A stretch of 64,000 nt of DNA. Source: Candidatus Omnitrophota bacterium (GTDB lineage Bacteria; Omnitrophota; Gorgyraeia; 2-01-FULL-45-10). The position numbers were made by a program, and so were the translations under genes. The stretch spans positions 5,040-69,039 of the forward strand of contig JBAZKH010000004.1 of NCBI GenBank assembly GCA_041650935.1. Direction: 5' to 3'. The notes beneath the pieces were generated by a model. It saw only the letters and a list, made by a program, of their open reading frames with translations, was not told where the DNA came from and made no database searches. Below are positions 17,113-64,000 of the stretch, in pieces; the stretch's first letter is position 1, and each line of letters starts with the position of its first letter.

Positions 17113-17141
17113 TAAAATATAAAATAGTTAGTTTTTTTGTA

Positions 17142-17169
17142 TTGACATACCAGCTTAATATGGTAAACT
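17142..17169 (+). promoter_or_regulatory. σ70-like promoter for ORF2.
   Basis: -35 TTGACA (17142-17147), a 16-nt spacer, then extended -10 TGgTAAACT (17161-17169). RBS AAAGGAG at 17208-17214, 8 nt before the ATG at 17223. Confidence 0.4.
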
Positions 17170-17222
17170 TATTACACTATTTATTAATGTTAAAAAAGTT
17201 AGATATTAAAGGAGATAGAACT

Positions 17223-26674: not shown

Positions 26675-26692
26675 TTCCACCCCGGGGTGGAA
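26675..26692. repeat. REP family B copy 2: palindrome ttccaccccggggtggaa.
   Basis: Begins 9 nt after the ORF2 stop. Identical core to 17091-17112. Confidence 0.6.
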
Positions 26693-33867: not shown

Positions 33868-33878
33868 TTACCATGTCC

Positions 33879-33910
33879 TTGCCGGGTGAATTCACCCGGC
33901 AAATTTTTTT
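33879..33910. repeat. REP family A copy 2 (ttgccgggtgaattcacccggcaa) plus a T7 run. It acts as the terminator for the GH94 gene and contains the RAYT stop codon.
   Basis: The palindrome is at 33879-33902 and TTTTTTT at 33904-33910. On the minus strand the RAYT reading frame ends ...KKFAG-TGA inside the REP. Confidence 0.7.
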
Positions 33911-34554
33911 GAGATTGCTGTTTGTCTCTGATATTCAATGTTTTCCTTAACAAACTTTTCGTAACTAGTACTATCCAGAGTTAAATATTCACCAAAATTA
34001 CATATTTTTTCATGAGAATCAATAGATCCTATGTATTCTTTGAAGGAAGAATACTTCCAATCTTCAGGGTTTTCAACAAGATATGCTGTGACTGGATTTA
34101 AGTGAAGGTAGCGGGTGAGGTGCAGTAATTGTTCGTCATTTTTTATTAAAACATTACCGAATCGGTTTTCCCATAATGGCCCCTTACGCTCATACTTTAT
34201 ATTGAAGTATCTACTATAGCTATTTAATATATGCCGCATATAATTCGATATTCCATCTTGACGAACTTCTTTTAGAACTAGATGGATGTGCGTGGGCATA
34301 ATACAATAACAAACAAGGTTGGTGCATTGCGGAGAAGGGTTGGATGCTAGAAATTCATCTTTTGCTTTTGCGTCAGCACAGATTTTACGAAATTCACGAA
34401 AAGTACAGGGAGATTTATCGTGTAAATAGAAACGGATCAGATCCAAAATTAATCGATAATCATTTTCGTTATTGAATATTTTAAAATCAGCGATGCTTTT
34501 ATTATATACATGATATAAGCCATCCATAAACAACGGAATCTCTCGTATTGGCAT
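33892..34554 (-). CDS. REP-associated tyrosine transposase (RAYT; IS200/IS605 TnpA-like Y1 HUH enzyme).
   Basis: HUH motif CYCIMPTHIHLVL and the catalytic-Tyr helix ...HLTRYLHLNPV (YxxxNP). AGGAGG RBS 5 nt upstream of the ATG (34554). Flanked by REP-A copies. The gene is markedly AT-rich relative to its neighbours. Confidence 0.8.
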   Translation of the reverse strand: MPIREIPLFMDGLYHVYNKSIADFKIFNNENDYRLILDLIRFYLHDKSPCTFREFRKICADAKAKDEFLASNPSPQCTNLVCYCIMPTHIHLVLKEVRQDGISNYMRHILNSYSRYFNIKYERKGPLWENRFGNVLIKNDEQLLHLTRYLHLNPVTAYLVENPEDWKYSSFKEYIGSIDSHEKICNFGEYLTLDSTSYEKFVKENIEYQRQTAISKKFAG

Positions 34555-34969
34555 AACATCCTCCTGTTTTATTCTTACTTTTACCCTTACTCTTGCCGGG
34601 TGAATTCACCCGGCAAGAGTAAGGTCTCTCATCTATAAGGACGCAAAAAGGGGCAAATTTGTTGCAATTTTTTTTAAATAAGCTTACTTCGAATTTTTCC
34701 CCGACGGGAAATGAATGTTGTGTAACTCTGATAGTGCACAGATATGTTACGCAGTCCAAATTCGTTAAGATTTCAAAAAGATAGACTTTGCTGCTTGACA
34801 AACTTCCCTTATATGCTAAACTAAACACAATGTCGCCCTCCTTCGCTAACTGACTTAAGATAACGGAAAGCTTCGGAGGGTGTTCTAATACAGAAAACAA
34901 TAACGAATGCTTGGCAAAGTTGCCAGGCATTTTTGTTTTATAAGTAAAGTAATTTATTAAGTCAGTCAA
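34502..34969 (-). CDS. Hypothetical small protein upstream of the RAYT on the same strand. Doubtful.
   Basis: A 155-codon ORF, mostly in the AT-rich spacer where random ORFs are rare. It reads through REP-A3 and overlaps the RAYT start by 52 nt. No recognisable motifs. Confidence 0.15.
   Translation of the reverse strand: MTDLINYFTYKTKMPGNFAKHSLLFSVLEHPPKLSVILSQLAKEGDIVFSLAYKGSLSSSKVYLFEILTNLDCVTYLCTIRVTQHSFPVGEKFEVSLFKKNCNKFAPFCVLIDERPYSCRVNSPGKSKGKSKNKTGGCYANTRDSVVYGWLISCI
34585..34624. repeat. REP family A copy 3: a 40-nt perfect palindrome ccttactcttgccgggtgaattcacccggcaagagtaagg.
   Basis: It lies 31 nt upstream of the RAYT start and completes the REP-RAYT-REP arrangement. Confidence 0.75.
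34795..34822 (+). promoter_or_regulatory. σ70-like promoter candidate for ORF3, implying a leader of about 160 nt.
   Basis: -35 TTGACA (34795-34800), a 16-nt spacer, then extended -10 TGcTAAACT (34814-34822). The architecture matches the ORF2 promoter. Confidence 0.35.
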
Positions 34970-37900: not shown

Positions 37901-40900
37901 AAGGAAACGTTATCTTCAATACTCTCGGGACAGGCCTGGGGCTTGCGGTCCTCAAAGATCAAAAGTTGGGGCTGGGGCCGATGGAGGCTCATATAAAGAT
38001 GACCTCGGCGCCGGACGCCATTTATCATGATGGTTTTGGCATGAGTGGCGACCTTGAATCCTACGCGAATGCCGAGTTCGTGGTATGGAGAGCGAAGCAG
38101 CTTTGCGCGGAAAGAGGCGTTAGATGGATAGACGGCGCTTCCCCTAAAACCATTGCCAAATGGCTGGACCATCCTGTAGTAGATGCCGAAAAATATCTTA
38201 TTGCCAAAGATGTGTTTATGGAATTCGGAGAGAATCTCACCGTTCTTTATTCTGAAATTGCGCGTGTCCAGGAGGAAAACGAATGGACGGTCGTATGTAT
38301 AGGAGGTATTGCTCAGGGTAAAGCTATAGAAGCGATAATAAAGGGAGTGAACGCAGCGGTTAAGACGAAATATCCGCATTTAAAATTAAATATCAAAACT
38401 TTCCCCGAAGCCGCTTACGCAGGTGCCATAGGCGCTCTCAATCTGGGTATTCAGGCCGCCGCAGAGACAGCGAAAACTACTGTCGAAGCCGCGCGGAATA
38501 CCGGCGGAGACGGCCAGGCGTACGGTGATAGCAATAAGTCTACGGTGGAAGTTATTCGCGCAGCCGAATCTAAGTGGGGCGGAGAGCTCTGGAAAAAAGA
38601 AGAGCTCAAGGCATTTGTAGATGAAAAGTTTGATGCCGTAACGGCGCTTTCCGCCGGCCCGATCTTTGTGCCGAGATCCGTAGTCCCAAATGAGGCGAGG
38701 GTGGGCTTGACACCTATCGGCATCGCATTTTTACGCGCCATAGGTGTTAAAAATCCCATTTATGTCCAAGTGGGTTGCGGTGTTAATCGCGGCACAGGCG
38801 AAGTCTATTTTTCCGACGATGAATACCGTCGGGCAGGGGCCGAGGTGCTTACCTGGGATGCTTTTGTGGCGAAAGCGCAAAGCGTTGACCGGAAGACTGT
38901 AGTCAATACAAAAGATCCGCAAGAATCCGAATTCCCGATCCTCAAAGGAGCGACTTTATTTGCGTATTTACACCTGGCGGCGCATCCGGAGCTTGCCCGA
39001 AGGCTATGCGATGTCATTGAAACAGGTATTGGTTACGAAACGATCGCTTTCTATGACAACGGAGTTTTACGCACTCCCGTTCTTCGCCCGGCAAGCCGTC
39101 CGACAGGCTGGTTATCCGCGCTTCGTTATTTAGAAACGGTGCGTGCGAAAAAAGAAGGACTGGATTTAAAGTCACCCGCGGTGCAAGTTCAGATGGGGCG
39201 TTGGTATAATGAAGACGCCGGGCAGTATCCTATGATGCCGCGACATACTACAGGAGCCCTTTCCGGCAAGACGGTAGTTGTTTTAGGCGGAGGGGAAGTA
39301 GGCTCAAGCGCCGCATTTGCGGCCGCCGACATGGGAGCCGCTGTTTATGTCACCGAAATCAATAGCAATCGTATTACCGAACTTGAGCAGATGATAGCCG
39401 AACGGCGCATAAGAGGCGCCGCGGGTTCCGTAGAAGTGGTCGCGAGAGACCAGAGAACGCCTATCGGCCAGGACGGGATCGGCAAGCATTTGTGGGAAGC
39501 CGACGCCATAATCGGCGCCTGTTATGTCGAAGGTTCCAGGCCTCCCGTTGAGATCGACTATACGCTTTACCGGGCACTTGTTGAACATGGCAACCTTGAG
39601 TATATGGCGGATCCCCCGATTGACCAGGGAGGAAGTATCGCGATAAGGCCCGGCCCGGAAGCTTCTGTTGAGCATACTGTTGAGCATACTTATGAGGATG
39701 GCTGGATAATAGAAGACGGTGTCTCGATCTTTACCGTGAGGAATATACCGAGCCTTCTGTCGCTTCAAGTTTCTCTCGGCCTTGAGCGGGCCAAGATGCC
39801 GTATCTTGTAGCGTCTCTCATGGGGCTCGAAAAAGCGATCGCTGCTTTCCCCGAGTTTGCCAGGGGCGTTAATGTTTATAAGGGGGCAGTAACCCAAGAG
39901 AATGTTGCCAGAGACATCGGCAAAGAGTATCTTCCGCTGGATACCGCTCTTTCCGGCGCAGGGTTGGGCGCGAGGCCGACAGCCGAGTATGTACTGCCGG
40001 CAGGTATTAAGGTAAATGATGTGAATGGCGCGATAAATGTAAAAGTATTCGAGCGCGAGGCATCCTTTAGTGTTTCGGATAATGCCGCAGTGATCGAGCA
40101 AAAATTAAGGGATATTTTAACGCCTTACAACATGCGGATCGGGGAAGGATGTTTAATTAACACTTATTTAAAACGTAAAGTGCTGCTCCCGAAGTTTGTG
40201 CGCAGTGCCGAAGGACTTCGCGCCGTTATCGCGGAACTGTTCGGCAGGATAAGCATTACGCTGCCCGGCCGAAAAGACAGGATCGAGATAACGAATTCTG
40301 CCAGTGTGGTTACCGCTCAACTTAACATAAGTGAAGCATTCAGGGGTAGCGGTATAGATGCATATGCAATAGGCGGCGATATGGTTACGTTGACACGCCC
40401 CGGCGTGAGCAGGATTAACGTCCCCGTACCGTTAGAACCGGCCAAACTCCAGGAAGCCTTCGAAACGCTATATGGAGAAACTCCGGCTAGTGACGTGCCT
40501 GTAGCAGGGACGACGCTTTCACTGAAAGATATTGTCAGGCATGATGTATTGAACGCGCTCTTAAACATGGCCATCAACTATTCCCGTGGAAGAAATGATA
40601 ACTTTATAAAGCATGAATATGATGGCGATGCTGAAATCTACTGGATTAAAGGAGGCGATTTCCGCGGTCTGCTGCAGTATTTGCTTGATTGCAAGCGTGA
40701 AGACCTGAAAATGGCAAAACGGTCTGTCGAAAACGATACCGAGTTATTCACTCTACTCATGCGCAATATCTTGAGCAGGTCTTATATATCCAACGAGATA
40801 CGCGTGATGTATGATTTAAGCTCATTTGCAGAACAGGTCGACAGCATGTTTTTGCTGGACTACCAACTGTCGGGGCAATTTGAACACTTCGGAGTCGGCT

Positions 40901-43900
40901 CCGGTGTTTCCACCGGCCCCATAAGGATCTTTATGTCTTCAGGCATGAGAGAGCATAAAGATGAGATCATTGCTCACGTCAAGGCCGAACGGGCACTCCA
41001 CTGGGCGGTCATCAATAAGTATTTTAAAGGCAACCTCAATAACTATCGGGAATGGAGAAAAAGCAGGATATCTATTAAGATCAATGTCGAGATAGAAGCC
41101 GAAAATTATACGGAGAAAAAAGGTGCCGTTACCTTATTACAAATCGATTCAGGAAGTAAACAGTTAACTTATAACGAATTTGCGGAAGAGGCCCATAAAA
41201 CGGCCGATGTTATTGCGAATGTTTCCCGTTTCAAAGAAATCTACAAGCGGCAGGGGGGAAGAAATACATCTCTTCTGCATGGGGAAGTTTCGGTTGCCGG
41301 CACCGCCTCCGGGCAGGATGGAGGCAAGCCGGATGAAAGGAAGAAAGATCTCGCTGGCATGGTTAGAAGCCTGACCAAGGCTGGCAAGAGCCCGGAAGAC
41401 GCGATCATAATTATCGCGATGGAAGGCCTGCGTAAATTTACTATAGATAAGTATAAAAGTGTTTATGAGTTACAAAGATCGCGAGGGGTATTAAAGCTCG
41501 ATCCCCTTGCCGGCAGCGATTCTACCGTGAGGGATAACATCTACCGTGGTTCCAATTCGCTCGAGAGCCGGCATTTAATCGCGCCTATCTATGGCGAGGT
41601 TAATGTAAAGGGCAGGTCTGTGCGCGCATGGCAACTGACAAGGCGCGGCGCGGAGATGGCAGAAGCGATAAGGATAATAAGGATCACCATGCAGGATATT
41701 ATGACAACGAGCGAGTCTATGCGTGGTGAGATCGAGGATGGCGAAGCGAAATCTGTCGCTAAAGCACTAGAAAGCGAATGCAGACAGGTTTTCGATCTCA
41801 AAGGTCCGGAATTTTTTGCAGAAATGGGGAGTCCGATAAATTTTGCAAATGCGCTTTACACAGCGCATTTGTCGAGACTTATAACCGTTTTAAGCGGCCT
41901 GAGCGCCAGGGAACATTCGGATTATTTTGGGAAACTGTCCAATAAACTGCGTGGTTATCGTGATGCGCTTCGGACGGGCGCGGACAAATTTGCGGCATCC
42001 CTTAAAGGAGAATTTTCCGGGGGCTCGCGCATCGATTTACCCAAAGCTGCCGACGCCGGCGCGATAGGCGGCGCTTCCAATATGGGTGTCCAGGCGGCTG
42101 TGCGTGCAGGGACGGAAAGCGCAAGCGAGCCGCAGCCGGCTAGTGACGCGCCTGTGGCGGAAGACGACAAAATGTCGTCTATTTCGCGTCTTACGAAAAT
42201 TTTAGACAGGGCACGGGAGGAAGGGATAAGGAATGCCCTGTTTGTCTTCGATATCGGCGGGACCCTTACAGGATGGAACGATGTTAAAGTCAATGAAATG
42301 GGAGGATATCCCGAAGTAAACAAGAGCCTGGAATCTTTATTGAAGAATGGGTACTATTCCGGCGTGCCGGATTTTGCGCAGGTTGTTTCACTTCTGGCAA
42401 GATATGGACACAAGGTGGGATTTATAACTACCGCAACGCTGGAGGAGACTGTAGGGATATTGCATGAGACCATGAGGGTGGAAGATTTGAATAGTGTGGC
42501 GTTAATAGTCGCGAAAAAATCGAACTCGCAATATATTCCTTCCCTTGCGGGCAGGTTTGGTATCCCGGCCGGTTTAGCAACAAGCGGTGAGCTCATCAAT
42601 CATTTACAAACGGCATATCCCGGCATGGTGGTTGAGTTAAGCGCCCTTCCAAAGCCGGAGATCGTAACGTCTGTGCCAAGAGTTGAAGATCTGCTTGATA
42701 AATATCCCGTCATTGCCATAGGTGATAGAGAAGAGGATTGTTCTTGGACGCAGGCCCTAAGCATGGCCGCAGGCGTTCGGGTCCCGTCCATCGGTAAAGA
42801 CGCTATAAATAATGTTGCCAAGACGGCCGCCGCGGGAATAGAGCTTTTATTGGAAAAGGACCAGCCTGCCGCGCCGGCGAGTAGTACCGGAGAAACAGCG
42901 GAAGTAGGGGGCCTTGGCCGTTTTATCGATAGTTCCGATCTGGGAGAGCACTACCGCGCTGTTATGGATGAAAATCCCGGGCCGACGGATCGTATCAGCA
43001 TTATAGTGAGCGGCAGGATAAGCCAATTAGATGGAAGCAGTGATCCCGTTTCCTATAATATAATCATCGGTAACGGGTGTATTGAGATTTGGGAACGTGA
43101 CGCATGGGACGTAAGATGGTATCCGGTTAAAGCGGAGATGACAGGGGCAAGACAGCTTACCTTGAGAGGTTCTGGTAAATCCGAAGTTGTCAAATTACCT
43201 GCGAGAATATTTGATCTTGTGGCGGCTATTAATAATGTCCTGGGACATAGATTTGTAAGCGTCCCATCGGTGAAGTTATCCAAAATAGCCGAGGAATCAG
43301 AAATAGAAGACCATGGCAGCCGGCCGGCGCCGCAAAATTCGTCGAAGGCAGCGGCCCTTGCGAAGACGTGCGCGGAAATTAAAGCTATGAGCGAAATAGC
43401 GCCGCAGATAGGCGACATAGCCGAACTTGCCGGAAAACAGATGGACAGGGAAAAGGACGGGAAGTATACCCTAGCTGTGCCGCCGGAAATGTTCAAGAAT
43501 AAGTGGGAGTTCAATAAACGCCGCAGGGAGTATGGCGACAGGTTCAACCTGGTCGAGACGAGTGCGCTTACGGCATCGGCGGAGACGTTTGTTAATAATC
43601 TGTTGAATCCCAAAACCATTCCGGAAGATCAAAGAAGCAAAACGATTGCGCTTGTACCGAAGAGTTTATCCAGAGATGACCTGGCAAGGCTCAAGGATGC
43701 CAAGATAAGATTTATCCCGGTCAGCGACCAACTGGCAAGCGTGAAAAGCTATCCTGAAGACGACAGGAAAATATTCCAGGTAAATACTTTTGCCGCCATG
43801 CATTCTTTGCGTCACGTAAACGATTCGCACGATACCGCATCCGTAGTTTATAGGATATCGGCTTTCTACGCATTACGCCATATTACTTCAAAAGACGGCG

Positions 43901-44043
43901 TTAAGATCAGTATAGAGGATTTCATCAAGGCAGTCGTCGATGGAAATGTCGACATATTGATCGATGTCTGTTTCGAGCCGGTCCGTCCGAAAGACGCGGA
44001 GAAAGAGCATGATATGGTTTCGAAACCTCTGATATTTGCGTAA
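34990..44043 (+). CDS. Giant secreted or anchored multidomain protein (3,017 aa). It has a ROK/glucokinase-like ATPase, an alanine-dehydrogenase/transhydrogenase-like NAD module and a degenerate HAD-like module.
   Basis: ATG at 34990 with RBS GAGGAG at 34974-34979. Signal peptide MKRINRAISVLILTSFIFNTAVSDFAYGAP. Single ORF to TAA at 44041-44043. Confidence 0.85.
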   Translation: MKRINRAISVLILTSFIFNTAVSDFAYGAPINLKPSVDKLAPSSKFCDLTGRIDNQDIARVEMTLESLVWKARKSDGTLDIEKLIKNSNESSDSLFKSPVRFGEGLQFFPREAKDLPGGCWRITAKINDRQNFSGKGFRTYYAVLPAHTDALGGFPVRGYKVEEWPAVEKEILERGKTPDRASERSEDAKAINRYKESNERIISTFIRERLYAGDFAEIEGRAHALDWDAEYPNRISPDSNHNAAYWTKDIEDIFRSNSREFFDLFGIEFDKVFGKKNFVFMKIPRGMERQLDIIENGERVPVRSRTSNNAVYFFLNEDDFNEIGNLSASHDVAQLRELVISSMLLSFIHETGAACGLPFSVLEGGLVQSDLDIAYNTYWRIFTAATLEPIDVPKARLAEKFSNLKNLKAVDLDILRGVNLAGEEYNRDLAAAVFPKTAREATRAQDLPGDLFQSYVRSNVNNVTGLAAYVESRPAHERPAITQNIRRILRGFPVARRAFNRAIADSAMKNADSRLKELAAAVLDDRDIRGFDFSVRYTNTGRIPEYYETLLIDFVNPLRPGDSQEFVISLVAGTVGLKALWNGEPYYYSSFSSGGVLTTTITNEFKARLAKVKEENAWQDWARITDEEAAEQPIPQPKGPVAGESLTNQSKRKVQELALASRRAARKAARELKWATGLVDDAEPQDAEPALLAEPAKPAANLATIDAKHAYFSELHRKAGELGKKAVVELQFLEADGRIGRETVTLPIGEVSRNMDCLVDYLATLLNVRGLINGATKVAVLTKETDAGDIIARLREHLRANFGKTEFMMSFGQGISFTRKPLKAEARTENKAKTVPVDYDKGVGVGFDLGGQGIKWAQRTKPGEKPATGRVDMEELMRPGALAGFIEQKIKETEESTGQKVSPGHPCIITIPGPVTPDGRIVLITNLEKTRPGTQKELEELQAKYPRGTIQFQNDANVPGHFYTVSQNIKGNVIFNTLGTGLGLAVLKDQKLGLGPMEAHIKMTSAPDAIYHDGFGMSGDLESYANAEFVVWRAKQLCAERGVRWIDGASPKTIAKWLDHPVVDAEKYLIAKDVFMEFGENLTVLYSEIARVQEENEWTVVCIGGIAQGKAIEAIIKGVNAAVKTKYPHLKLNIKTFPEAAYAGAIGALNLGIQAAAETAKTTVEAARNTGGDGQAYGDSNKSTVEVIRAAESKWGGELWKKEELKAFVDEKFDAVTALSAGPIFVPRSVVPNEARVGLTPIGIAFLRAIGVKNPIYVQVGCGVNRGTGEVYFSDDEYRRAGAEVLTWDAFVAKAQSVDRKTVVNTKDPQESEFPILKGATLFAYLHLAAHPELARRLCDVIETGIGYETIAFYDNGVLRTPVLRPASRPTGWLSALRYLETVRAKKEGLDLKSPAVQVQMGRWYNEDAGQYPMMPRHTTGALSGKTVVVLGGGEVGSSAAFAAADMGAAVYVTEINSNRITELEQMIAERRIRGAAGSVEVVARDQRTPIGQDGIGKHLWEADAIIGACYVEGSRPPVEIDYTLYRALVEHGNLEYMADPPIDQGGSIAIRPGPEASVEHTVEHTYEDGWIIEDGVSIFTVRNIPSLLSLQVSLGLERAKMPYLVASLMGLEKAIAAFPEFARGVNVYKGAVTQENVARDIGKEYLPLDTALSGAGLGARPTAEYVLPAGIKVNDVNGAINVKVFEREASFSVSDNAAVIEQKLRDILTPYNMRIGEGCLINTYLKRKVLLPKFVRSAEGLRAVIAELFGRISITLPGRKDRIEITNSASVVTAQLNISEAFRGSGIDAYAIGGDMVTLTRPGVSRINVPVPLEPAKLQEAFETLYGETPASDVPVAGTTLSLKDIVRHDVLNALLNMAINYSRGRNDNFIKHEYDGDAEIYWIKGGDFRGLLQYLLDCKREDLKMAKRSVENDTELFTLLMRNILSRSYISNEIRVMYDLSSFAEQVDSMFLLDYQLSGQFEHFGVGSGVSTGPIRIFMSSGMREHKDEIIAHVKAERALHWAVINKYFKGNLNNYREWRKSRISIKINVEIEAENYTEKKGAVTLLQIDSGSKQLTYNEFAEEAHKTADVIANVSRFKEIYKRQGGRNTSLLHGEVSVAGTASGQDGGKPDERKKDLAGMVRSLTKAGKSPEDAIIIIAMEGLRKFTIDKYKSVYELQRSRGVLKLDPLAGSDSTVRDNIYRGSNSLESRHLIAPIYGEVNVKGRSVRAWQLTRRGAEMAEAIRIIRITMQDIMTTSESMRGEIEDGEAKSVAKALESECRQVFDLKGPEFFAEMGSPINFANALYTAHLSRLITVLSGLSAREHSDYFGKLSNKLRGYRDALRTGADKFAASLKGEFSGGSRIDLPKAADAGAIGGASNMGVQAAVRAGTESASEPQPASDAPVAEDDKMSSISRLTKILDRAREEGIRNALFVFDIGGTLTGWNDVKVNEMGGYPEVNKSLESLLKNGYYSGVPDFAQVVSLLARYGHKVGFITTATLEETVGILHETMRVEDLNSVALIVAKKSNSQYIPSLAGRFGIPAGLATSGELINHLQTAYPGMVVELSALPKPEIVTSVPRVEDLLDKYPVIAIGDREEDCSWTQALSMAAGVRVPSIGKDAINNVAKTAAAGIELLLEKDQPAAPASSTGETAEVGGLGRFIDSSDLGEHYRAVMDENPGPTDRISIIVSGRISQLDGSSDPVSYNIIIGNGCIEIWERDAWDVRWYPVKAEMTGARQLTLRGSGKSEVVKLPARIFDLVAAINNVLGHRFVSVPSVKLSKIAEESEIEDHGSRPAPQNSSKAAALAKTCAEIKAMSEIAPQIGDIAELAGKQMDREKDGKYTLAVPPEMFKNKWEFNKRRREYGDRFNLVETSALTASAETFVNNLLNPKTIPEDQRSKTIALVPKSLSRDDLARLKDAKIRFIPVSDQLASVKSYPEDDRKIFQVNTFAAMHSLRHVNDSHDTASVVYRISAFYALRHITSKDGVKISIEDFIKAVVDGNVDILIDVCFEPVRPKDAEKEHDMVSKPLIFA
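37510..38450 (+). other. ROK / glucokinase-like ASKHA sugar-kinase domain.
   Basis: VGFDLGGQGIKWA (the phosphate-1 DxGGT-type loop, from 37525), FQNDANVPG (the ROK NDAN motif), NTLGTGLGLAV (the phosphate-2 GTGxG loop) and ...CIGGIAQG... Confidence 0.55.
38680..39800 (+). other. Alanine dehydrogenase / pyridine-nucleotide transhydrogenase-like N-terminal and NAD(H)-binding domains.
   Basis: ...RVGLTPIGIAFLRAIG... followed by KTVVVLGGGEVGSSAAFAAADMGAAVYVTEINSNRITELE (a GxGxxG Rossmann fingerprint at 39275-39316). Confidence 0.5.
42200..42830 (+). other. HAD-like module with a degenerate motif I.
   Basis: LFVFDIGGTLTGW (42247-42267) is DxGGTL rather than DxDGTL. Downstream ...VIAIGDREEDCSWTQ... 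resembles a GDxxxD motif IV. It may be non-catalytic. Confidence 0.3.
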
Positions 44044-44056
44044 CCTTTGCTTTCTC

Positions 44057-44077
44057 CCCGGCAAGAAGCTTGCCGGG
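44057..44077. repeat. REP-A-related hairpin cccggcaag-aag-cttgccggg, with the REP-A arms in swapped order.
   Basis: A 9-bp stem with a 3-nt loop, 14 nt after the ORF3 stop. The arms are identical to those of REP-A but arranged as at a REP-REP junction. Confidence 0.5.
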
Positions 44078-44088
44078 ATAAGCCTGTA

Positions 44089-44097
44089 TGGTATAAT
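44089..44097 (+). promoter_or_regulatory. Extended -10 TGgTATAAT, giving a leaderless transcript for the response-regulator gene.
   Basis: TATAAT at 44092-44097 with TG at 44089-44090. The ATG at 44104 is 7 nt downstream, so the TSS falls at or near the A of the ATG. No RBS is possible. Confidence 0.4.
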
Positions 44098-44103: not shown

Positions 44104-44787
44104 ATGCGAATACTCGTTATCGAAGACGAGCGGAAGATAGCCGATTTCATCAGGCGCGGCTTAAAAGAAGAAGGCTATGCCGTCGATACTTCTTACGACG
44201 GCGAGAACGGCCTATTTCTCGCCAAGACCAATAACTATGACCTCATCCTTCTCGATCTTATGCTCCCTAAAATAGACGGTATTACGGTCTGCAAAAAGCT
44301 GAGAGCGGATAAGATCGTATCGCCTATCATAATGCTTACCGCCAAAGACGCCGTAAAGGATAAGGTCACAGGCCTCGACGCCGGCGCCGACGATTATCTG
44401 ACAAAACCATTTGCCTTCGAGGAGCTATTGGCCAGGATCCGCGCAATATTAAGGAAGAAGGGCGAACAGGAACAGGCGACGCGTCTTGCGGTCGGCGATC
44501 TTTCACTCGACCTCACGACGCATAAAGTTACCAGGGCGGGGAAAGATATAGAGCTGACTTCAAAAGAATTTGCGCTGCTGGAATACCTTATGAGAAACGC
44601 CGGCAAGGTTGTGACCAGGACGATGATATCCGAGCACGTCTGGGATATAGATTTCGACACGTTCACCAACGTCATAGACGTCTACATCAATTATCTCCGT
44701 AATAAAATAGACTCCGACGCCAGAGTGAAGCTCATCCAGACCGTGAGGGGAAGAGGATATATACTGAAAAGTGATAATGACAAATGA
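44104..44787 (+). CDS. OmpR-family response regulator (receiver plus winged-helix DNA-binding domain).
   Basis: MRILVIEDERKIADFIRRGL...DLILLDLMLPKIDG...LTAKDAVKDKVTGLDAGADDYLTKPF... followed by a trans_reg_C-like C-terminus ...LEYLMRNAGKVVTRTMISEHVW... Confidence 0.85.
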   Translation: MRILVIEDERKIADFIRRGLKEEGYAVDTSYDGENGLFLAKTNNYDLILLDLMLPKIDGITVCKKLRADKIVSPIIMLTAKDAVKDKVTGLDAGADDYLTKPFAFEELLARIRAILRKKGEQEQATRLAVGDLSLDLTTHKVTRAGKDIELTSKEFALLEYLMRNAGKVVTRTMISEHVWDIDFDTFTNVIDVYINYLRNKIDSDARVKLIQTVRGRGYILKSDNDK

Positions 44788-44811
44788 CAAAATCCGAATG
44801 ACAAATTAATC
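44772..44811 (+). promoter_or_regulatory. Conserved direct-repeat element, copy 1: gtgataatgacaaatgacaaaatccgaatgacaaattaatc. It spans the response-regulator stop codon.
   Basis: 35 of 41 positions are identical to 63513-63552. Three TGACAAA half-sites at about 14-nt spacing. An inverted copy tttgtcattg lies at 44825-44834. The element sits between the response-regulator and kinase genes. Confidence 0.4.
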
Positions 44812-44860
44812 ATTAAATATCAAATTTGTCATTGAACACCGTATTCTTGGGCAAAAATAT

Positions 44861-46336
44861 ATGTTCTACAAGTCCATCCGCTTCAAGGTATCGATCGTCT
44901 ACATGGCCATACTGGCCATCACGCTCTCCATATTCAGCACGCTCCTGTATCACCAGGTGAGCAAATCCCTCTACGATAATATCGATGCTATCTTAAGTTC
45001 GCGCGCCGAAGGTATAGTCTCGGCTATCGGCACGTACTGGTCGACAGAACGGCTGGGCACGGCCCGTTACGGCGCGGCGGCGCAGATACCTCCGCCTGCC
45101 GGAGAGAATGCCGATTTCGCGACCATTGCCCAGCGCTGGGTCGAGGCGCGGTCAAAGGACCCGAAGCTCCTCAATATCATAGTCCAGATATTCGATGCCA
45201 GGGGAGATATAGTCACCTCATCGAAGAATACTCAGGGCATAACGAGCGTCTCCGACTCCACCCTCTACGCGGCACTCCAGGGCAAGAGCACGTTCGATAC
45301 GCTTACGACGTCATTTCCCACGAAAAAGATGCAGGTATTCCGCGTCTACATTACGCCCGCGCTCCAGGACGAGCGGGTGGAATATATCGTCCAGGTCGCC
45401 AGTCCGCTCGATTCGATAATAGACGCCCTGAATACCCTTAAAGTCACGGTCTTCATACTCTTCCCGATAACGGTTTTGATCACCGGGGTCATGGGCGCAT
45501 TCCTGGCGAAGCTTACCCTGCGGCCGGTAGACAGCATGATACGCACGATACATAATATAACCGTCGAGAATATGAAGATGAAGCTGGCGATCCCCAACAC
45601 CAAAGACGAGATACAGAAACTCGCCGAAACTTTTAACGATATGCTCGGCCGGCTCGATATAGCTTTCACTTCCCAGCGGCATCTTTTTGAAAACCTTTCG
45701 CATGAGCTGAAGACCCCGCTCACGATACTTAACGGCGAGTTCGAGGTCATCCTTAAGAAGATGCGTTCCCCGGCGGATTATGAGGCCGTCCTGCGTTCGA
45801 GCCTCGAAGAGATCAATAAGATGACACGGCTGGTGGAGAATCTCCTTCTCCTGGCGAGTTTCGAATCGAAAAATTTCATGCCGGAGAAAAAGACGCTCGA
45901 CCTGACGGCCTTGCTGAAGGGCGTAAGCGACAATATGCGCAGGCTGGCCGAAAGGAAGAAGATAGCCATATCGTTTACGGCCAAAGAGGCGGTCGGGATA
46001 GTCGGCGATGAAAAAGAGCTGAAGCAGCTCTTCCTTAATATAATAGATAATGCCGTTAAGTATACCCCCGATGGCGGCCGGATAAGCGTGAGCGTTGAAA
46101 AGTCCTATGAGTCGGCCAGGATCGTCATAAGCGATACGGGTGTCGGCATCCCATCGGGCGATACAGTGCACATATTCGACAGGTTCTATCGTGTCCAGGA
46201 TACGAGATCGAGCTGCGGTTTTGGTCTCGGATTGAGCATAGCCAAGGCCGTTATAGACTCCCATAACGGCTCCGTTAAGGTAGAGAGCGCCCCGGGAGAA
46301 GGAAGTTCCTTCATTATTACCCTGCCATTGCGATAG
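44861..46336 (+). CDS. Sensor histidine kinase (two TM helices with a periplasmic loop, then HAMP, HisKA and HATPase_c).
   Basis: H-box HELKTPL (45701-45721). N-box ...IIDNAVKYTP... G-boxes DTGVGIP and GFGLGLSIAK. TM segments at the N-terminus and at about residue 190. Confidence 0.85.
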   Translation: MFYKSIRFKVSIVYMAILAITLSIFSTLLYHQVSKSLYDNIDAILSSRAEGIVSAIGTYWSTERLGTARYGAAAQIPPPAGENADFATIAQRWVEARSKDPKLLNIIVQIFDARGDIVTSSKNTQGITSVSDSTLYAALQGKSTFDTLTTSFPTKKMQVFRVYITPALQDERVEYIVQVASPLDSIIDALNTLKVTVFILFPITVLITGVMGAFLAKLTLRPVDSMIRTIHNITVENMKMKLAIPNTKDEIQKLAETFNDMLGRLDIAFTSQRHLFENLSHELKTPLTILNGEFEVILKKMRSPADYEAVLRSSLEEINKMTRLVENLLLLASFESKNFMPEKKTLDLTALLKGVSDNMRRLAERKKIAISFTAKEAVGIVGDEKELKQLFLNIIDNAVKYTPDGGRISVSVEKSYESARIVISDTGVGIPSGDTVHIFDRFYRVQDTRSSCGFGLGLSIAKAVIDSHNGSVKVESAPGEGSSFIITLPLR

Positions 46337-47198: not shown

Positions 47199-49460
47199 AT
47201 GAAGCGCATAGCCGCTCTTATACTACTCTTCGGACTGATCCTAGATATACCATCATCCGCATCCGCGCAGAATAAAGCGCAGAAATTCGTTGCACCCATT
47301 ATTGTAAGCGATTATACAGACGGGACAATTACAAACTCTCTCGGCGGCATATCCGGCGGGAAAGAGACGCTGCCGGGTGTGCTCTACGCCGCGGCCACTC
47401 CCGATGAGTGCTCTACGCGCGGCGCTTCGGGTTATTCGCTGCAGCTCGATTATGATGTCTCTAAGCTAGGAGAATACGCGTTTTACTGGATGAAGCTCGG
47501 CGGGGAGATACCCGGCCGCGATAAGGCCACAAAGACGCTCGACCTGACCGGTTATAGTTACATTACCTTCTGGGTGAAGGGCGCGCAGGAGGGCGGAGAC
47601 CTGAAGATAGAACTCCATCAGGATATAGACGCTAACGGCATCTTCGAATTCGGCAAGGATATTACAAGCTGCGTATACGCCAAAGGCTACCTTAAGAGCG
47701 GCACCATTACCAAAGAGTGGCAGAAGCTCGTGATACCGTTAAAAAATTTTACTTTAATTACAGACTGGAAACGGATCCTGGAATTTGTCATTGTCCTTGA
47801 GAACAAAGCGGGCAATGCGGCGGGAACGGTATATATAGACGATATCCTTTTTGGTTACAGGCCGGCCGATGTTTTGGAGAGCCTGGGCACAGAGGATCTG
47901 AAAGCCCCGGCGGAATCTTCTTTCACGGTGAACGGCGTCAATTCCAAAAGATGCGCCGCGTTTGCCGGCACCACAACGCTGGCTATAAAAGCGGAAGATG
48001 TAAATAACAACCCGTTCATCGAAAGCGTCAGGTTTGAGTATTCGGTGGACAAGGGCGCGAACTGGCGGATCATAGGCTGCGATTACAACGTCTCCAAGAA
48101 CGTATATAAAGTAGAGTGGCAGCCCGATAATTCCAGACAGCTTTACAATTATGAAATAAGGGCCGTTGCTTCCAGCGTGGGAGGCGTCGAAAAGGCCACG
48201 GGCGTCCTGATAGACTGTCCCGTCAAGCCGATAACGGACGATGAGTTCCTGGACCTGGTCGAGCGTAAAGCGTTCGACTTCTTCAAGGACCACCAGAATC
48301 CGGTTACAGGCCTCTTCGCCGATACATCCGGCGGCGGGGACGCGAGCATCGCCTCGACCGGTTTTGGCATGGCGGCTCTTTGTGTCGGCGCCCAGCGGGG
48401 TTGGATCGACAAGAAGGAAGCTAAGGCGCGCGTCCTTACGGCGCTGAACATGTTCCTTCCCAAAGGACCGGAGGCCGAACCGCTTGCCGACGGAAGATAC
48501 GGTTTCTTCTACCATTTCCTGAATGCGCATAACGGCAAAAGGGCCGGCAGGAGCGAGATATCGACCGTCGATACCGCAATACTGGTTGCCGGGGCGCTCA
48601 CCGCGGGTGAATATTTCGGCCAGGACGTGAAAGCCAGGGCGGAAGAGATATATAAACGGGTCGAGTGGGAAAAATTTTTGTGTACAACGAAAGGCGGATG
48701 GTATAACTGTTATTCGATGGGATGGTCGCCCGAGAGAGGGTTCCTCGATTCTTACTGGGATTATTATACGGATGAAGTTGTACTCATAACGCTCCTTGCC
48801 ATAGGTTCCCCGACCCACCCCGCGCCGCCGGATGTTTTTTACGCGTGGGCCAGGAACAAAGATGCTTATAAGGACGGGAAACCGTTTATCTACAGCTGGC
48901 ATGGCAGTCTCTTCTCTTATCAGTATGCCAATATATGGTTCGATTTCCGCGGCATAGCCGACAAACAGGGTGTGAACTGGTTCGAGAATTCGACGAACGC
49001 GACATTGGCAAACAGACAATTTTGTATCGATAATGCCGACAAACTTAAAGGCATGGGCCCGAATATGTGGGGGATAACTTCGATGTCCAGGCCGGAGGGT
49101 TATACAATGCATTTCGGCGTCCCCCCTACGGGAAACGGCGAACCCGAATACGACAACACCGTATCGCCCACAGGGCCGGCCGGGTCGATCGTATTTACGC
49201 CGTATCTTTCGTTGTCGGCCCTGAAGCATATGTACCTGACATATCCGAGGCTCTGGGGCCAGTATGGGTTCAGGGATTCGATCAATGCCGGACGCAGCTG
49301 GTACGCCTTTACATATTACGGTATAGGCGAGGCGATGATACTTCTGCCGATAGAGAATTTCCGTTCCGGATTTATCTGGAAGAATTTTATGAAGAATACG
49401 TATATAAAGGATGCGCTTACGAAAGCCGGTTTCACCAAGGCGAAAGGGGCACTAAAGTGA
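47199..49460 (+). CDS. Secreted CBM-like domain + Ig-like linker + DUF3131/GH144-like glucanase-like domain.
   Basis: ATG at 47199 with RBS AAAAGGA. The track's ATG at 47154 is inside the palindrome. Signal peptide MKRIAALILLFGLILDIPSSASA. C-terminal motifs STVDTAILVAGALTAGEYF, YQYANIWFDFRG and YGFRDSINAGRSWYAFTYYGIGEAMILLPIEN. Confidence 0.8.
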   Translation: MKRIAALILLFGLILDIPSSASAQNKAQKFVAPIIVSDYTDGTITNSLGGISGGKETLPGVLYAAATPDECSTRGASGYSLQLDYDVSKLGEYAFYWMKLGGEIPGRDKATKTLDLTGYSYITFWVKGAQEGGDLKIELHQDIDANGIFEFGKDITSCVYAKGYLKSGTITKEWQKLVIPLKNFTLITDWKRILEFVIVLENKAGNAAGTVYIDDILFGYRPADVLESLGTEDLKAPAESSFTVNGVNSKRCAAFAGTTTLAIKAEDVNNNPFIESVRFEYSVDKGANWRIIGCDYNVSKNVYKVEWQPDNSRQLYNYEIRAVASSVGGVEKATGVLIDCPVKPITDDEFLDLVERKAFDFFKDHQNPVTGLFADTSGGGDASIASTGFGMAALCVGAQRGWIDKKEAKARVLTALNMFLPKGPEAEPLADGRYGFFYHFLNAHNGKRAGRSEISTVDTAILVAGALTAGEYFGQDVKARAEEIYKRVEWEKFLCTTKGGWYNCYSMGWSPERGFLDSYWDYYTDEVVLITLLAIGSPTHPAPPDVFYAWARNKDAYKDGKPFIYSWHGSLFSYQYANIWFDFRGIADKQGVNWFENSTNATLANRQFCIDNADKLKGMGPNMWGITSMSRPEGYTMHFGVPPTGNGEPEYDNTVSPTGPAGSIVFTPYLSLSALKHMYLTYPRLWGQYGFRDSINAGRSWYAFTYYGIGEAMILLPIENFRSGFIWKNFMKNTYIKDALTKAGFTKAKGALK

Positions 49461-61529: not shown

Positions 61530-62288
61530 ATGAGTAAAATTGTTGAGACTATGACAAATCCGTTTAAAAAAGAACGCGTCCGCGCGTCCGCCCAGGAAGA
61601 GATCGCGAAGATATACCTTAAGGTTTCCGACAAGAGTAAAAGTAAAAAAGAGCGGGTGGTGTCGAAATTTCCATGGCTCGTTGCGGCAGCGGCAGTTGTT
61701 ATCGCGCTTGCGACGCTTCTATTCAAGAGTAATATAGATGTCAGGATAAGGATACTGGGCGAGATACCGTCGATCGGTTTCGAGGGTACCGACAAATTCG
61801 GCAGTCTTCGCGAAAAAGGCCTGTATCTGGTCAGGGGCAGCGAGCTTAATACGTACCTGGTCAAGAACGCCGATTTTACCGGTGATGCGCGGACCTTCAG
61901 CAAAGCCGGCGACGGCGCGCTCATCCTGTGTAATTCGAGGGGCAGCGGCTGGGCGAATTACGAGATATCCATGAGAGATCCTGTAAATTTGCGCAAGCTC
62001 GATCTTAAGTATATGGCTAAAGGCGGCGCCGGTGACGAGTACCTTACTGTAGTCATAGTCGATTCCGACAACAGGTCGTACAGGATAGAGAAAGATATAG
62101 TTTCGAAATTGTCGAAAGATTGGCGGCCCTATACTATAAATTTTAAACCTTTAAGCAACGCCATAGACCTGGCGAATATAATAAAGGTAAGGTTCGAATT
62201 CGGGACATTGACGGCGGGAAACAGTTCTACGTCGACACTTTTTTTAAAAGATGTATGTGTCGTTAAAACCAAGAGGATGGGGCTATGA
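61530..62288 (+). CDS. Membrane-anchored protein with an extracytoplasmic CBM-like β-sandwich.
   Basis: A single TM FPWLVAAAAVVIALATLLF after a charged N-terminus. C-terminal ...GWANYEISM...YLTVVIVDSD...WRPYTINF...IKVRFEFG...LFLKDVCVV. The start is uncertain: the alternative is the ATG at 61551, and the track's 61398 overlaps the permease. The stop overlaps the ROK gene's ATG. Confidence 0.5.
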   Translation: MSKIVETMTNPFKKERVRASAQEEIAKIYLKVSDKSKSKKERVVSKFPWLVAAAAVVIALATLLFKSNIDVRIRILGEIPSIGFEGTDKFGSLREKGLYLVRGSELNTYLVKNADFTGDARTFSKAGDGALILCNSRGSGWANYEISMRDPVNLRKLDLKYMAKGGAGDEYLTVVIVDSDNRSYRIEKDIVSKLSKDWRPYTINFKPLSNAIDLANIIKVRFEFGTLTAGNSSTSTLFLKDVCVVKTKRMGL

Positions 62289-63511
62289 CAAAAGGCTCTA
62301 ATGTCTTTAGTTTTCATATTACGCAGGACAGGGAGAGGAGGAACCTCGCCATACTCGAGCTTATCCGCAAACGCGGCCCGGTCTCCAGGGCGGAGATATC
62401 GAGGATCCTCGGATCGAATATCGTTACGGTTACTAACTACGCCGACTATTATATCAACAAGAAGATAATACTCGAGGTTGGCCTCGATATGTCATCCGGG
62501 GGCAGGCGGCCCGAGCTTCTGGAATTGAGCCCGAAGAGCGGCTATGTTGTCGGCGTCGACGTCAGCCCTGCGAATATAATGGCGATAGTGGCCGATCTCA
62601 AGGTTAACGCCGCGGCGAAAGTCAGGATGCCCAGGCCGTCGACGAACATGGAAGAGCTGATCGCGCCGGTTGCCAGAATAGTAAAAGAGGTAATGGAAAA
62701 GAGTAAGATAAGCAAGCCCGATATTAAGAATATAGGTATGGGCATCTCCGGTATCATAGATTATCCTTCCGGCACGATCCGCGATACGGATCCTACCAGG
62801 GGCAGGACGCGCGTAAGTTTCCTGAAGTTCGCGAAAGCGATCGAACAGGAGTTCGACATGCCTGTATATATAGGTAACGACGCTTCCTGCGCCGCGTTCG
62901 GAGAGCGGACGCTTAATCCCTCAGCCGACGTGGATAATATCGTATATGTATATTCGGATGTGGGATGCGGTATGGTAATAAACGGCGACGTCTATACGGG
63001 TTCGAGCGGCTGCGCGGGCGAGACGCAGATAGCTTACAACGGCCTCCAGGTCGACGAGGCCAGTTACGTCGAGGAGTTTACTCATCTCAGGCCGTGGGGA
63101 GTCGACCTTGGGATAGTTGCGGGTGCGCGCAAAGCGCTGGCGGATAAAGAGACCACCGCGATCGCGGATCTAGTCGGCGGTAAAGCGGAGAAAATAACGA
63201 AGGAGATCGTGATAGACGCCGCTAAGAAAGGCGATAAACTTGCCGCGGAACTCCTGGAGATTGCCGGGAAGAACCTGGGCGTGCGTATAGCCTATATGAT
63301 AAATTTCCTGAATCCTGCCATGATAATAATAGGCGGGGGCATGGAGACGGCAGGAGATTTTATCTTCGAGCCGGTCAAGCAGATGGTGAAGAAATTTGCG
63401 TTCGAAGAACCGGCGAGCATGGTTAAGATAGTGCCGAGCTTTCTGGGCGAGGATGCGATAGTGATGGGCGCCGCGGCGCTCGCGGCCAGGGAAGTGTTTA
63501 TAGAGGCATGA
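62285..63511 (+). CDS. ROK-family transcriptional regulator (N-terminal wHTH plus sugar-kinase-like domain).
   Basis: RBS GAGGA. N-terminal ...LAILELIRKRGPVSRAEISRILGSNIVTVTNYADYY. VVGVDVSPANIMA, IGNDASCAAFGE, and a Zn-motif-like ...GCGMVINGDVYTGSSGCAGE. Confidence 0.8.
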   Translation: MTKGSNVFSFHITQDRERRNLAILELIRKRGPVSRAEISRILGSNIVTVTNYADYYINKKIILEVGLDMSSGGRRPELLELSPKSGYVVGVDVSPANIMAIVADLKVNAAAKVRMPRPSTNMEELIAPVARIVKEVMEKSKISKPDIKNIGMGISGIIDYPSGTIRDTDPTRGRTRVSFLKFAKAIEQEFDMPVYIGNDASCAAFGERTLNPSADVDNIVYVYSDVGCGMVINGDVYTGSSGCAGETQIAYNGLQVDEASYVEEFTHLRPWGVDLGIVAGARKALADKETTAIADLVGGKAEKITKEIVIDAAKKGDKLAAELLEIAGKNLGVRIAYMINFLNPAMIIIGGGMETAGDFIFEPVKQMVKKFAFEEPASMVKIVPSFLGEDAIVMGAAALAAREVFIEA

Positions 63512-63512
63512 A

Positions 63513-63552
63513 GTATAATGGCAAATGACAAAATCCAAATGACAAATCAATC
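63513..63552 (+). promoter_or_regulatory. Conserved direct-repeat element, copy 2: agtataatggcaaatgacaaaatccaaatgacaaatcaatc, with a third TGACAAA at 63557-63563.
   Basis: It sits immediately after the ROK gene stop and 83 nt upstream of htpX. It is 35/41 identical to 44772-44811. It is followed by loose gatttgg/gatttga repeats up to the RBS. Confidence 0.4.
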
Positions 63553-63634
63553 GTCAATGACAAATATTTGGATTTAAACGATTGATTTGGATTTTGAAAT
63601 TGGGATTTGAAAATTGTGATTGGAGGGTTGCGCG

Positions 63635-64000
63635 ATGTGGAGTTTGAGGCTGCGGATGTGGTTACTTACGGTAGTCCTGTTTGCGATAATATACGCGATA
63701 ATATCGATGGTGAGCTATTCGCTCGGTATCGGCAACTTTTATTTTTACCTTATATTGTCGCTTGTTATGATGTTCGCCCAATATATGCTGGGGCCGAAAC
63801 TTATCGAGTGGTCCATGCAGGTGAGGTATCTCAAGGCCGGTGAACTGCCGGAGCTTCAAACGATGGTCCGTTCGCTTGCTATGGCCGCCAACATACCGGC
63901 GCCGCGTATAGGTCTCGCCAGGATTTCGGTACCCAATGCGTTTGCGTTCGGCCGTTCCATAAAGGATGGGAGAATTTGTGTTACCGAAGGCATAATGGGT
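63635..64000 (+). CDS. htpX: Protease HtpX homologue (M48 family), 3'-truncated by the window end.
   Basis: RBS GGAGGG at 63622-63627. MWSLRLRMWLLTVVLFAIIYAIIS... two N-terminal TM helices. ...ELQTMVRSLAMAANIPAPRIGLARISVPNAFAFGRS... matches the HtpX signature PNAFATG. Confidence 0.8.
   Translation, partial: MWSLRLRMWLLTVVLFAIIYAIISMVSYSLGIGNFYFYLILSLVMMFAQYMLGPKLIEWSMQVRYLKAGELPELQTMVRSLAMAANIPAPRIGLARISVPNAFAFGRSIKDGRICVTEGIMG

Follow-up and report, generated by a model that had tools for sequence, protein, structure and literature searches.

Two gene junctions in a 64,000-nucleotide (nt) stretch of a Candidatus Omnitrophota genome (GCA_041650935.1, contig JBAZKH010000004.1, positions 5,040 to 69,039; the whole stretch is called the window below) contain the same sequence rich in TGACAAA words, one between the genes of an OmpR-type response regulator and a sensor kinase, the other ahead of htpX. 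What kind of element is this? An earlier note had suggested that it may be an operator by which the neighbouring two-component system regulates both itself and htpX, and had named a small mobile repeat as the alternative. We found that both copies are members of a dispersed family, are built of 7-nt words (heptads) and are lineage-specific at their junctions, and that genes of the Pfam family PF05635 are generally linked to heptad arms. The TGACAAA motif is likely to be the left end of a bounded, dispersed family of heptad hairpins whose arms also enclose PF05635 genes, the window copies being gene-less and not operators. The interpretation in the earlier note is thus partly supported: the mobile repeat fits the evidence much better than the operator, and it is upheld here in a more specific form.

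Two gene-less members of a dispersed family

The two strings that raised the question are real. Direct comparison gave 35 identical bases of 41, but the strings begin at 44771 and 63512, so both start positions first reported were one base too late. The word AATGACAAA was counted 8 times in the 64-kb window against 0.40 expected (highest value in shuffled sequence, 2), and the 24-mer AATGACAAAATCCRAATGACAAAT twice against 0 expected. Seven of the eight words lie inside the two elements (plus strand at 44776, 44783 and 44797 and minus strand at 44825-44833 in copy 1; plus strand at 63524, 63538 and 63556 in copy 2), while the eighth, at 47784-47792 on the minus strand within an open reading frame (ORF), looks like a chance match. 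A repeat scan of the window also couples 44748-44816 with 63489-63557 (family D3). The TGACAAA direct repeats had been described as spaced by about 14 nt; the words are indeed direct repeats, but their spacings are 7, 14 and 18 nt, and the basic period is 7 nt, of which 14 is the double. No member of this class beyond the two copies was found by a word-array scan of the 64 kb.

Each copy is inserted precisely at a stop-to-start junction, one in the regulator-kinase operon and the other in the ROK-htpX pair. Copy 1 (44776..44833, plus strand) is 58 nt long, aatgacaaatgacaaaatccgaatgacaaattaatcattaaatatcaaatttgtcatt. Its left terminus (44776..44806) consists of the words AATGACAAA, TGACAAA, ATCCGAA and TGACAAA, then T, and it overlaps the last codons of the regulator gene, as had been noticed earlier: the TGA at 44785-44787 is the regulator's own stop codon (C-terminus RGYILKSDNDK*). 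The right arm (44822..44833, AAATTTGTCATT) is vestigial and ends in an inverted word already seen before, a minus-strand AATGACAAA at 44825-44833. It agrees with the right-terminus consensus of the family at just 17 of 31 positions, and the terminal word AAATTTGTCATT alone is kept. The ends form a terminal inverted repeat, AATGACAAAT...ATTTGTCATT, and in the RNA fold AAUGACAAAUU pairs with AAUUUGUCAUU in an 11-bp stem (-14.7 kcal/mol, z -1.4). Copy 2 (63517..63621, plus strand) is a full-size hairpin of 105 nt, which fills the gap from 5 nt past the ROK stop up to the htpX ribosome-binding site GGAGGG. Its left arm (63517..63564) reads AATGGCAAA TGACAAA ATCCAAA TGACAAA TCAATCGTCAA TGACAAA. Its right arm (63567..63621) reads TTTGGAT TTAAACGATTGA TTTGGAT TTTGAAA TTGGGAT TTGAAAA TTGTGATT; the earlier note had recorded the copy but overlooked this complete arm of TTTG words, which extends it to 63621. 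The right end is degenerate, with 21 of 31 positions matching the right-terminus consensus ATTTGACATTTGAGCTTTGACATTTGACATT, and the hairpin has a predicted energy of -27.9 kcal/mol (z -2.0) around a perfect 12-bp core, CAAAUCAAUCGU/ACGAUUGAUUUG. Complementary ends that make a stem around a loop are therefore clear in copy 2 and weak in copy 1. Both copies match the left-terminus consensus AATGACAAATGACAAAATCCAAATGACAAAT at 30 of 31 positions, and neither contains an ORF or a PF05635 remnant. A short-read contig from the source sample (L128) stops inside copy 2, at window position 63551.

The earlier note had proposed a genome-wide motif search and had held that occurrence at many unrelated sites would speak against an operator. 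We scanned one genome per species (GTDB representatives) for the 21-mer TGACAAAATCCNAATGACAAA and found it at at least 116 unrelated loci, against 1-5 chance matches by our own composition estimate. The family statistics that follow were drawn from 116 loci among the matches listed. Among 80 record titles, 24 name Patescibacteria and 17 Omnitrophota, and other labels include Planctomycetota, Desulfobacterota, Chlamydiota, Verrucomicrobiota, Chloroflexota, one Nostoc and two archaeal bins; at least 10 genomes carry two matches. Column statistics revealed a sharp left boundary about 10 nt 5' of the 21-mer, with the left-end consensus AATGaCAAATGACAAAATCCAAATGACAAAT. The right end is distinct, ATTTGACATTTGAGCTTTGACATTTG(A/T)CATT, followed by unique sequence in which conservation ceases. 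Fifty-eight elements had both ends and measured 63-224 nt (median about 124). The two ends are imperfect inverted repeats of each other, differing in the third word (ATCCAAA vs GCTCAAA).

The anatomy between these ends is also regular. The 5' arm is composed of NNNCAAA words (TGACAAA, ATCCAAA, TGTCAAA, GCTCAAA) and the 3' arm of TTTGNNN words, usually with 4-7 words per arm. The spacing is 7 nt from CAAA to CAAA in 375 of 538 cases and from TTTG to TTTG in 240 of 356. The two arms keep a constant orientation: TTTG arrays lie 3' of the CAAA 21-mer in 59 of 103 loci and 5' of it in 0 of 103. Since the 3' words are complementary in kind to the 5' words, either strand can form an AU-rich imperfect hairpin, with arm complementarity limited to the CAAA/TTTG core. 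Elements start a median of 14 nt past the preceding stop codon, and 7 loci outside the window resemble copy 1 in that a TGA within the element, 12 nt in, serves as the stop codon of the host ORF. Crude ORF calls placed 57 elements between co-directional genes, 8 between convergent and 9 between divergent genes. Copies that are 81-89% identical outside the searched 21-mer were found within different flanks in different Omnitrophota records. In the flanks of L071, L097, L116 and L020, elements of the TGACAAA type lie in the loop of another palindrome (e.g. gggaatccag…ctggattccc), which suggests nested insertions. The idea that stop codons crowd the top strand and leave the bottom one open was only weakly borne out (5.9 vs 4.4 stops per element) and was dropped.

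Could such arrays have been made in place? The element might be a non-mobile heptanucleotide microsatellite of the short tandemly repeated repetitive (STRR) type, produced by local replication slippage, with shared words arising by convergence. Among long simple-sequence repeats, heptamers are the most frequent kind in many bacteria (PMC4679880, PMC4692102), Coxiella strains vary in repeat number, and, as described below, the arm words of relatives differ at the same junction and arm type is nearly uncoupled from the relatedness of the enclosed protein. However, pure slippage yields monotonous arrays. A control scan of viral contigs for (CAAANNN)4CAAA returned mostly such monotonous microsatellites, of other words, and a TTTG arm followed in 3 of 121. 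The family has a fixed order of differing words at two sharply bounded ends, a word order that both window copies share (30/31), and its 81-89% identical copies occupy sites with different flanks. An origin by slippage alone is hence very unlikely, while slippage, together with recombination between the arms, probably contributes to the change of arm words.

The same junctions in related Omnitrophota

Copy 1 is preceded by the gene of the OmpR-type regulator (44104..44787, plus strand; Pfam Response_reg and Trans_reg_C), whose exact protein is also encoded on contig L117, and is followed by that of a HAMP/HisKA/HATPase sensor kinase (44861..46336, plus strand), which some source annotations call 'heavy metal sensor kinase'. 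Copy 2 is preceded by the gene of a ROK-family protein (62285..63511, plus strand) and followed by that of an M48/HtpX protease (63635..64000, plus strand), which runs past the window end. The assignments of regulator, kinase and htpX in the earlier note hold by Pfam, and the ROK-HtpX gene order is kept in relatives.

The occupancy of these junctions varies. The regulator-kinase junction is empty, with 1-6 nt from stop to ATG, in L118, L120 and L126, whose kinases are 77%, 73% and 61% identical to that of the window. In L122 it holds a GC-rich palindrome, tgtcattctgagg…cctcaggatgaca, and in L124 a heptad hairpin of other words (gtgataa gtagtaa gttataa … ttaactt aaaactt). The ROK-htpX junction is likewise compact in L131 (23 nt, without the element); it has two TTTG words and nothing more in L130, a heptad hairpin of AGACC/GGTCT words in L129, one of GTGTAAT/ATTACAC words in L332, and a tgtcattctga palindrome, as in L122, in L132. 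The states of the two junctions match within each of the 4 genomes scored at both: CAAA-type elements at both in the window genome, the tgtcattctga palindrome at both in GCA_041643055.1 (L122, L132), GT-rich heptads at both in Ga0265297_10001327 (L124, L332), and two empty junctions in GCA_028715345.1 (L120, L131). Because the junctions of relatives are either empty or filled by other palindromes, genome by genome, the element is a lineage-specific occupant of permissive stop-to-start junctions and no conserved partner of the regulator. The palindrome of GCA_041643055.1 is GC-rich and REPIN-like, tgtcattctgag…ctcaggatgaca (L122 9905-10000, L132 11225-11313), and related 'gtcattcc…' palindromes recur in the flanks of L050, L068 and L116 from other phyla.

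These results bear directly on the proposal that the adjacent regulator binds the TGACAAA repeats, autoregulates its operon and controls htpX. In its favour, direct repeats adjoin the regulator gene and precede both the kinase gene and htpX. On the other hand, the 21-mer occurs at those 116 or more loci in other phyla, the element is absent from the L118, L120 and L126 junctions despite a conserved regulator and kinase, and the htpX junction of relatives is empty or has other palindromes. The direct repeats recognised by OmpR-family dimers are set about one helical turn (10-11 bp) from each other, a winged-helix tandem spacing that the 7-bp period does not fit. Moreover, the sole good sigma-70-like promoter near copy 1 (44070-44097) lies 5' of the regulator gene and has no TGACAAA, whereas copy 1 lies downstream of that gene. 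Because of this dispersal, the empty orthologous junctions, the period and the position 3' of the regulator gene, the operator reading is not supported, and we consider it extremely improbable. Nor did the window hold any evidence of an envelope-stress regulon resembling the CpxR-htpX one that had been invoked.

A second possibility is that the hosts have selected an RNA element, either a bidirectional terminator or attenuator or a 3' stabilising hairpin, which sets the regulator:kinase and ROK:HtpX ratios. The element starts right past stop codons, it forms a hairpin with a U-rich 3' arm, some hairpin occupies the same junctions in several relatives, and for the STRR hairpins located between hupS and hupL a role in transcript stabilisation or termination has been suggested (PMC2670836). 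Against this, promoter and terminator scans gave nothing convincing in either element: the stems are AU-rich and the GC-rich stem with a U-tract that marks an intrinsic terminator is absent at both, while canonical GC-rich hairpins do occur elsewhere in the window. Convergent contexts are not enriched (8 against 57 co-directional and 9 divergent), close relatives have no hairpin at either junction (L120/L131), and the word order is not kept complementary. We therefore regard a host-selected element as unlikely. Shine-Dalgarno sequences are not enriched 3' of the right end (8 vs 11 in controls).

Heptad arms around PF05635 genes

ORF clustering showed that several of the 116 loci have a gene of 110-125 codons between their two arms. 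Two of them, L052 and L054, are from Omnitrophota; here the ATG of the gene directly adjoins the canonical left end, and an arm of TTTG words follows the stop codon; in L054 the downstream arm closes on the canonical right terminus. The enclosed proteins belong to Pfam PF05635, '23S rRNA-intervening sequence protein' (E 1.5e-21 to 1.8e-12), and to TIGR02436, 'four helix bundle protein'.

The reverse test started from the protein. An alignment of five enclosed proteins was searched against metagenomes, which gave 600 candidate stretches, of which 587 were confirmed, and the best 80 of the 587 were kept. Their PF05635 genes are flanked by heptad words of many kinds (NNNCAAA, NNNCTAA, NNNCGAA, GGCAAAG, TTATAAA), the reverse-complement kind being found on the opposite side of the gene. 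Mean lag-7 identity was 0.40 upstream and 0.42 downstream of the genes, compared with 0.26 in the control. When a flank was called heptad-periodic at a lag-7 identity of at least 0.6 within a 35-nt window, 94% of 69 PF05635 loci were periodic on at least one side, compared with 2.9% of 102 control windows; 65% were periodic on both sides, 78% upstream and 81% downstream. The duplex energy of the two flanks was -50.4 kcal/mol within a locus, -36.1 across loci and -28.1 as a direct repeat, and the own-locus duplex beat the cross-locus one in 54 of 68 cases, which points to locus-specific complementarity. Neighbours of the PF05635 genes are mostly co-oriented with them (48 of 61 upstream and 44 of 57 downstream, 77-79%), with gaps of about 80 nt. 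Wherever the flanks of a sampled locus were long enough, a neighbouring ORF lay within 600 nt, which speaks against a location in rRNA.

The association also holds for plasmids of cultured or enrichment-grown bacteria, where heptad arms were present at 9 of the 9 four-helix-bundle genes examined: Nostoc (three strains), Anabaena cylindrica, Gloeocapsa, Planktothrix, Bernardetia, Treponema saccharophilum and Chlorohelix. Nostoc punctiforme PCC 73102 provides an example with (CAATTCG)4 … gene … (CGAATTG)4, the gene being NPUN_RS35560 on plasmid pNPUN02. Since the association is thus seen in genetically tractable strains such as this one, the question becomes testable. Several of these genes are embedded in operons, with cas2 and cas1 on either side or with DUF1156 and Swt1-HEPN defence-type genes; such contexts were seen in L334 (Anabaena cylindrica PCC 7122 pANACY.01), L336 (Nostoc TCL26-01), L340 (Gloeocapsa PCC 7428) and L339 (Chlorohelix). 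Such placements may account for the listing of '23S rRNA IVP' with CRISPR-associated proteins in PMC10910872, and the elements may inflate apparent associations with CRISPR arrays. In the literature searched we found no statement of the general rule that PF05635 genes lie between inverted heptad arms and have gene-less versions, and searches with the element sequence returned primers only.

Arm words change faster than the PF05635 protein: arm word type barely follows protein relatedness (53.5% vs 51.7% identity), so the arms may be remade locally by slippage. This counts against a single bounded family that includes the window copies and whose arms enclose PF05635 genes, as do several other observations. 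Clean long forms with the canonical left end make up only 2 of the 116 loci, and L004 and L080 are composite or nested cases. No PF05635 remnants were found by blastx inside short elements, so descent of the short from the long forms would have to be argued from their shared ends. None of the 58 full elements shows a target-site duplication, the available empty sites being too diverged for an insertion footprint, and ORF clustering near the 116 loci found no transposase or other recurrent neighbour gene; the most recurrent unrelated ORF clusters (11 and 8 loci) resemble housekeeping genes by eye. Right-arm words in permuted order fold as well as the real order (mean z +0.33, 66 elements), so the hairpin pairs in several registers rather than as a precise palindrome, and exact pairing is not conserved. 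The fold z-scores of both window copies are modest, and the stem of copy 1 is below the length of a canonical RNase III substrate. The low complexity of the word vocabulary inflates the likeness between copies. Lastly, the taxon labels come mostly from metagenome bins that are possibly mis-binned, above all the two archaeal ones.

In another reading the protein-bound state would be functional and not the hairpin, the element being an array of binding sites with one 7-nt word per protein subunit or domain. Candidate binders would be the pentameric four-helix-bundle protein, cold-shock-domain proteins on the U-rich arm, or a nucleoid protein such as IHF/HU. The strict 7-nt register, the conserved CAAA/TTTG cores with free NNN positions and the usual arm length of 4-7 words agree with this, as does the lack of conserved exact pairing. 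PF05635 is homologous to Avd of diversity-generating retroelements, which binds nucleic acids (PMC10053308), CspB binds heptamers (discussed in PMC4679880), and similar paired arrays of Geobacter have been proposed as IHF/HU sites (PMC2700814). But a tblastn search of the window and of the relatives' loci detected no gene for PF05635, and the word type hardly follows protein relatedness. We find such an array quite unlikely, and continue to favour a dispersed hairpin family of which the window copies are gene-less members.

Known systems and other repeats in the window

Intervening sequences of 23S rRNA have been described as parasitic stem-loops that are co-transcribed with the rRNA and cut out by RNase III; an S23p ORF, whose function is not known, is present in some of them (PMC4990558). 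In Coxiella, the 5' stem has GACAGAT three times and then GACAGAA, directly 5' of the S23p ATG; the heptamer number differs among strains, and the 5' cut by RNase III falls at the first repeat (PMC4990558). The intervening sequences of Coxiella burnetii and Leptospira resemble the family in having a stem of complementary ends with a PF05635 ORF in the loop, and in Coxiella tandem heptamers stand directly 5' of the ORF start, as at our PF05635 loci. The intervening sequences are part of the host transcript, as the window copies would be, and they are sporadic in distribution and thought to be horizontally transferred (PMC4990558). The Coxiella word GACAGAT is 1 base apart from the window word GACAAAT. 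Unlike these sequences, the window copies lie between protein-coding genes and not in 23S helix 9, 25 or 45, have no ORF, and form imperfect stems of mixed words. Rfam found no rRNA in the window and no match at gathering score, with only chance-level matches (E >= 0.04) at relaxed E-values.

Filamentous cyanobacteria have hairpins of 7-bp repeats, for example between hupS and hupL, whose function is not known (PMC2670836). These STRR sequences share with our elements the tandem 7-nt words, the intergenic site within operons and the hairpin potential, and in this analysis the heptamer arrays of Nostoc and Anabaena flank four-helix-bundle genes. In contrast, the window host, to judge by the sources given for an identical ROK protein and for homologues of the kinase, belongs to Omnitrophota and is no heterocystous cyanobacterium, and its elements have mixed words and conserved ends in place of a single reiterated word. 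No published link between STRR sequences and PF05635 was found in the literature searched. Paired inverted heptanucleotide arrays also occur at the proB-proA junction of Geobacter metallireducens, where G. sulfurreducens has another multicopy element, and were proposed as regulator or IHF/HU sites (PMC2700814); TAACTGA repeats in Beggiatoaceae and cyanobacteria have an unexplained cross-phylum distribution (PMC4679880). The Geobacter arrays resemble the window elements in having tandem heptamers on opposite strands at operon junctions. The words of both differ from ours (MTYCTGA in Geobacter, and TAACTGA), earlier interpretations made them regulator sites, IHF/HU sites or translational signals, and no associated gene was reported. 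One paper states that detailed literature on heptameric repeats is lacking (PMC4692102).

Miniature inverted-repeat transposable elements (MITEs) such as Correia, ERIC and the Coxiella MITEs are also small, AT-rich and multicopy, with imperfect terminal inverted repeats and a hairpin, and are likewise intergenic; they are co-transcribed with their neighbours, as the window copies may be. The window copies are small and non-coding (58 and 105 nt) and multicopy (two in 64 kb, and two or more in at least 10 genomes). They differ from MITEs in several ways: neither a target-site duplication nor a transposase-bearing parent insertion sequence turned up, the sole gene ever seen enclosed is a 120-amino-acid (aa) four-helix bundle, and records that carry the labels of different phyla share a conserved 31-nt end. 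Repetitive extragenic palindromic (REP) sequences and REPINs, mobilised by REP-associated tyrosine transposases (RAYTs), similarly lie just past stop codons and form genome-specific 'house' families at the same junctions, but the elements here have neither a GTAG/CGTC head nor a short GC-rich palindrome. Integron attC sites were also considered and rejected: by inspection the elements lack RYYYAAC/GTTRRRY cores, and they are flanked not by cassettes but by housekeeping genes in syntenic order.

What might the element do where it sits? Read-through transcription of the host operon would include it, and the arms of copy 2 would then form a long imperfect duplex in the transcript. By analogy with the 23S intervening sequences this duplex may be cut by RNase III, or it may serve as an intercistronic hairpin, and either outcome would let the cistrons on its two sides have separate fates; copy 2 is a plausible candidate for either role. 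Copy 1 is probably a decayed and nearly inert remnant, with little effect beyond the four residues that it adds to the regulator. The element itself is probably a modest, near-neutral occupant of two junctions, and its class the more interesting part. More tentatively, and with considerable doubt, we suggest one hitherto unrecognised class of selfish hairpins, extending over many phyla, that would comprise PF05635 genes with heptad arms, 23S intervening sequences, STRR hairpins and the gene-less window copies. Such hairpins would be promoterless, would ride on operon transcripts and be excised by RNase III cleavage in the heptad stem, while the 7-nt words would be recognised by a pentameric Avd-like protein that helps to copy or move the element.

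For the window, the comparison removes a tempting but wrong regulatory annotation. Beyond it, three old oddities may share one element class, namely the STRR heptamers, the rRNA intervening sequences with S23p, and the abundant four-helix-bundle genes without a function. STRR sequences were described about 1990, and rRNA intervening sequences with an S23p ORF in the early 1990s. In practice, such elements break short-read assemblies and lengthen ORF calls.

The window also contains repeats of other kinds. A 220-aa ORF on the minus strand (33892-34554) is RAYT-like (Pfam Y1_Tnp, E 3.9e-6; NCBIfam NF047646, E 3.9e-18, yet under the family cut-off). This gene is flanked by a REP different from the heptad elements: the palindrome CTTGCCGGGTGAATTCACCCGGCAAG stands on both of its sides (33878-33903 and 34592-34617), and a third copy (16956-16981) follows a 5641-aa gene. 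A short-read contig from the source sample (L117) starts inside this REP palindrome, at window position 34595. RAYT-like genes of relatives (L118 973-1623, L130 14748-15386) are accompanied by different palindromes. In the window, the RAYT-like gene and a 3017-aa gene sit between a GH94 gene (31495-33867) and the regulator gene. Because GH94 directly precedes the regulator in L118, L120 and L126, these genes seem to have been inserted as a block into a glucan-utilisation cluster that is otherwise conserved.

Four giant ORFs were found, at 22-16947 (5641 aa), 17070-26666 (3198 aa), 34990-44043 (3017 aa) and 51296-57430 (2044 aa). A further palindrome, TTCCACCCCGGGGTGGAA, occurs twice exactly, at 17093-17110 and 26675-26692, with a copy of 2 mismatches at 15401-15418; of the exact copies, one lies at the predicted start of the 3198-aa gene, overlapping its TTG-called 5' end, and the other just past its stop. 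Within the 5641-aa ORF, a unit rich in GC and about 42-57 nt long (…GGCCCCAAACCACTCGGCCCTTCGGGCCTCGGATTCGGGGCAGGC) occurs five times between 9703 and 12072, once at 9703-9759 and four times in close succession at 11863-12072, where three copies are spaced by 42 nt.

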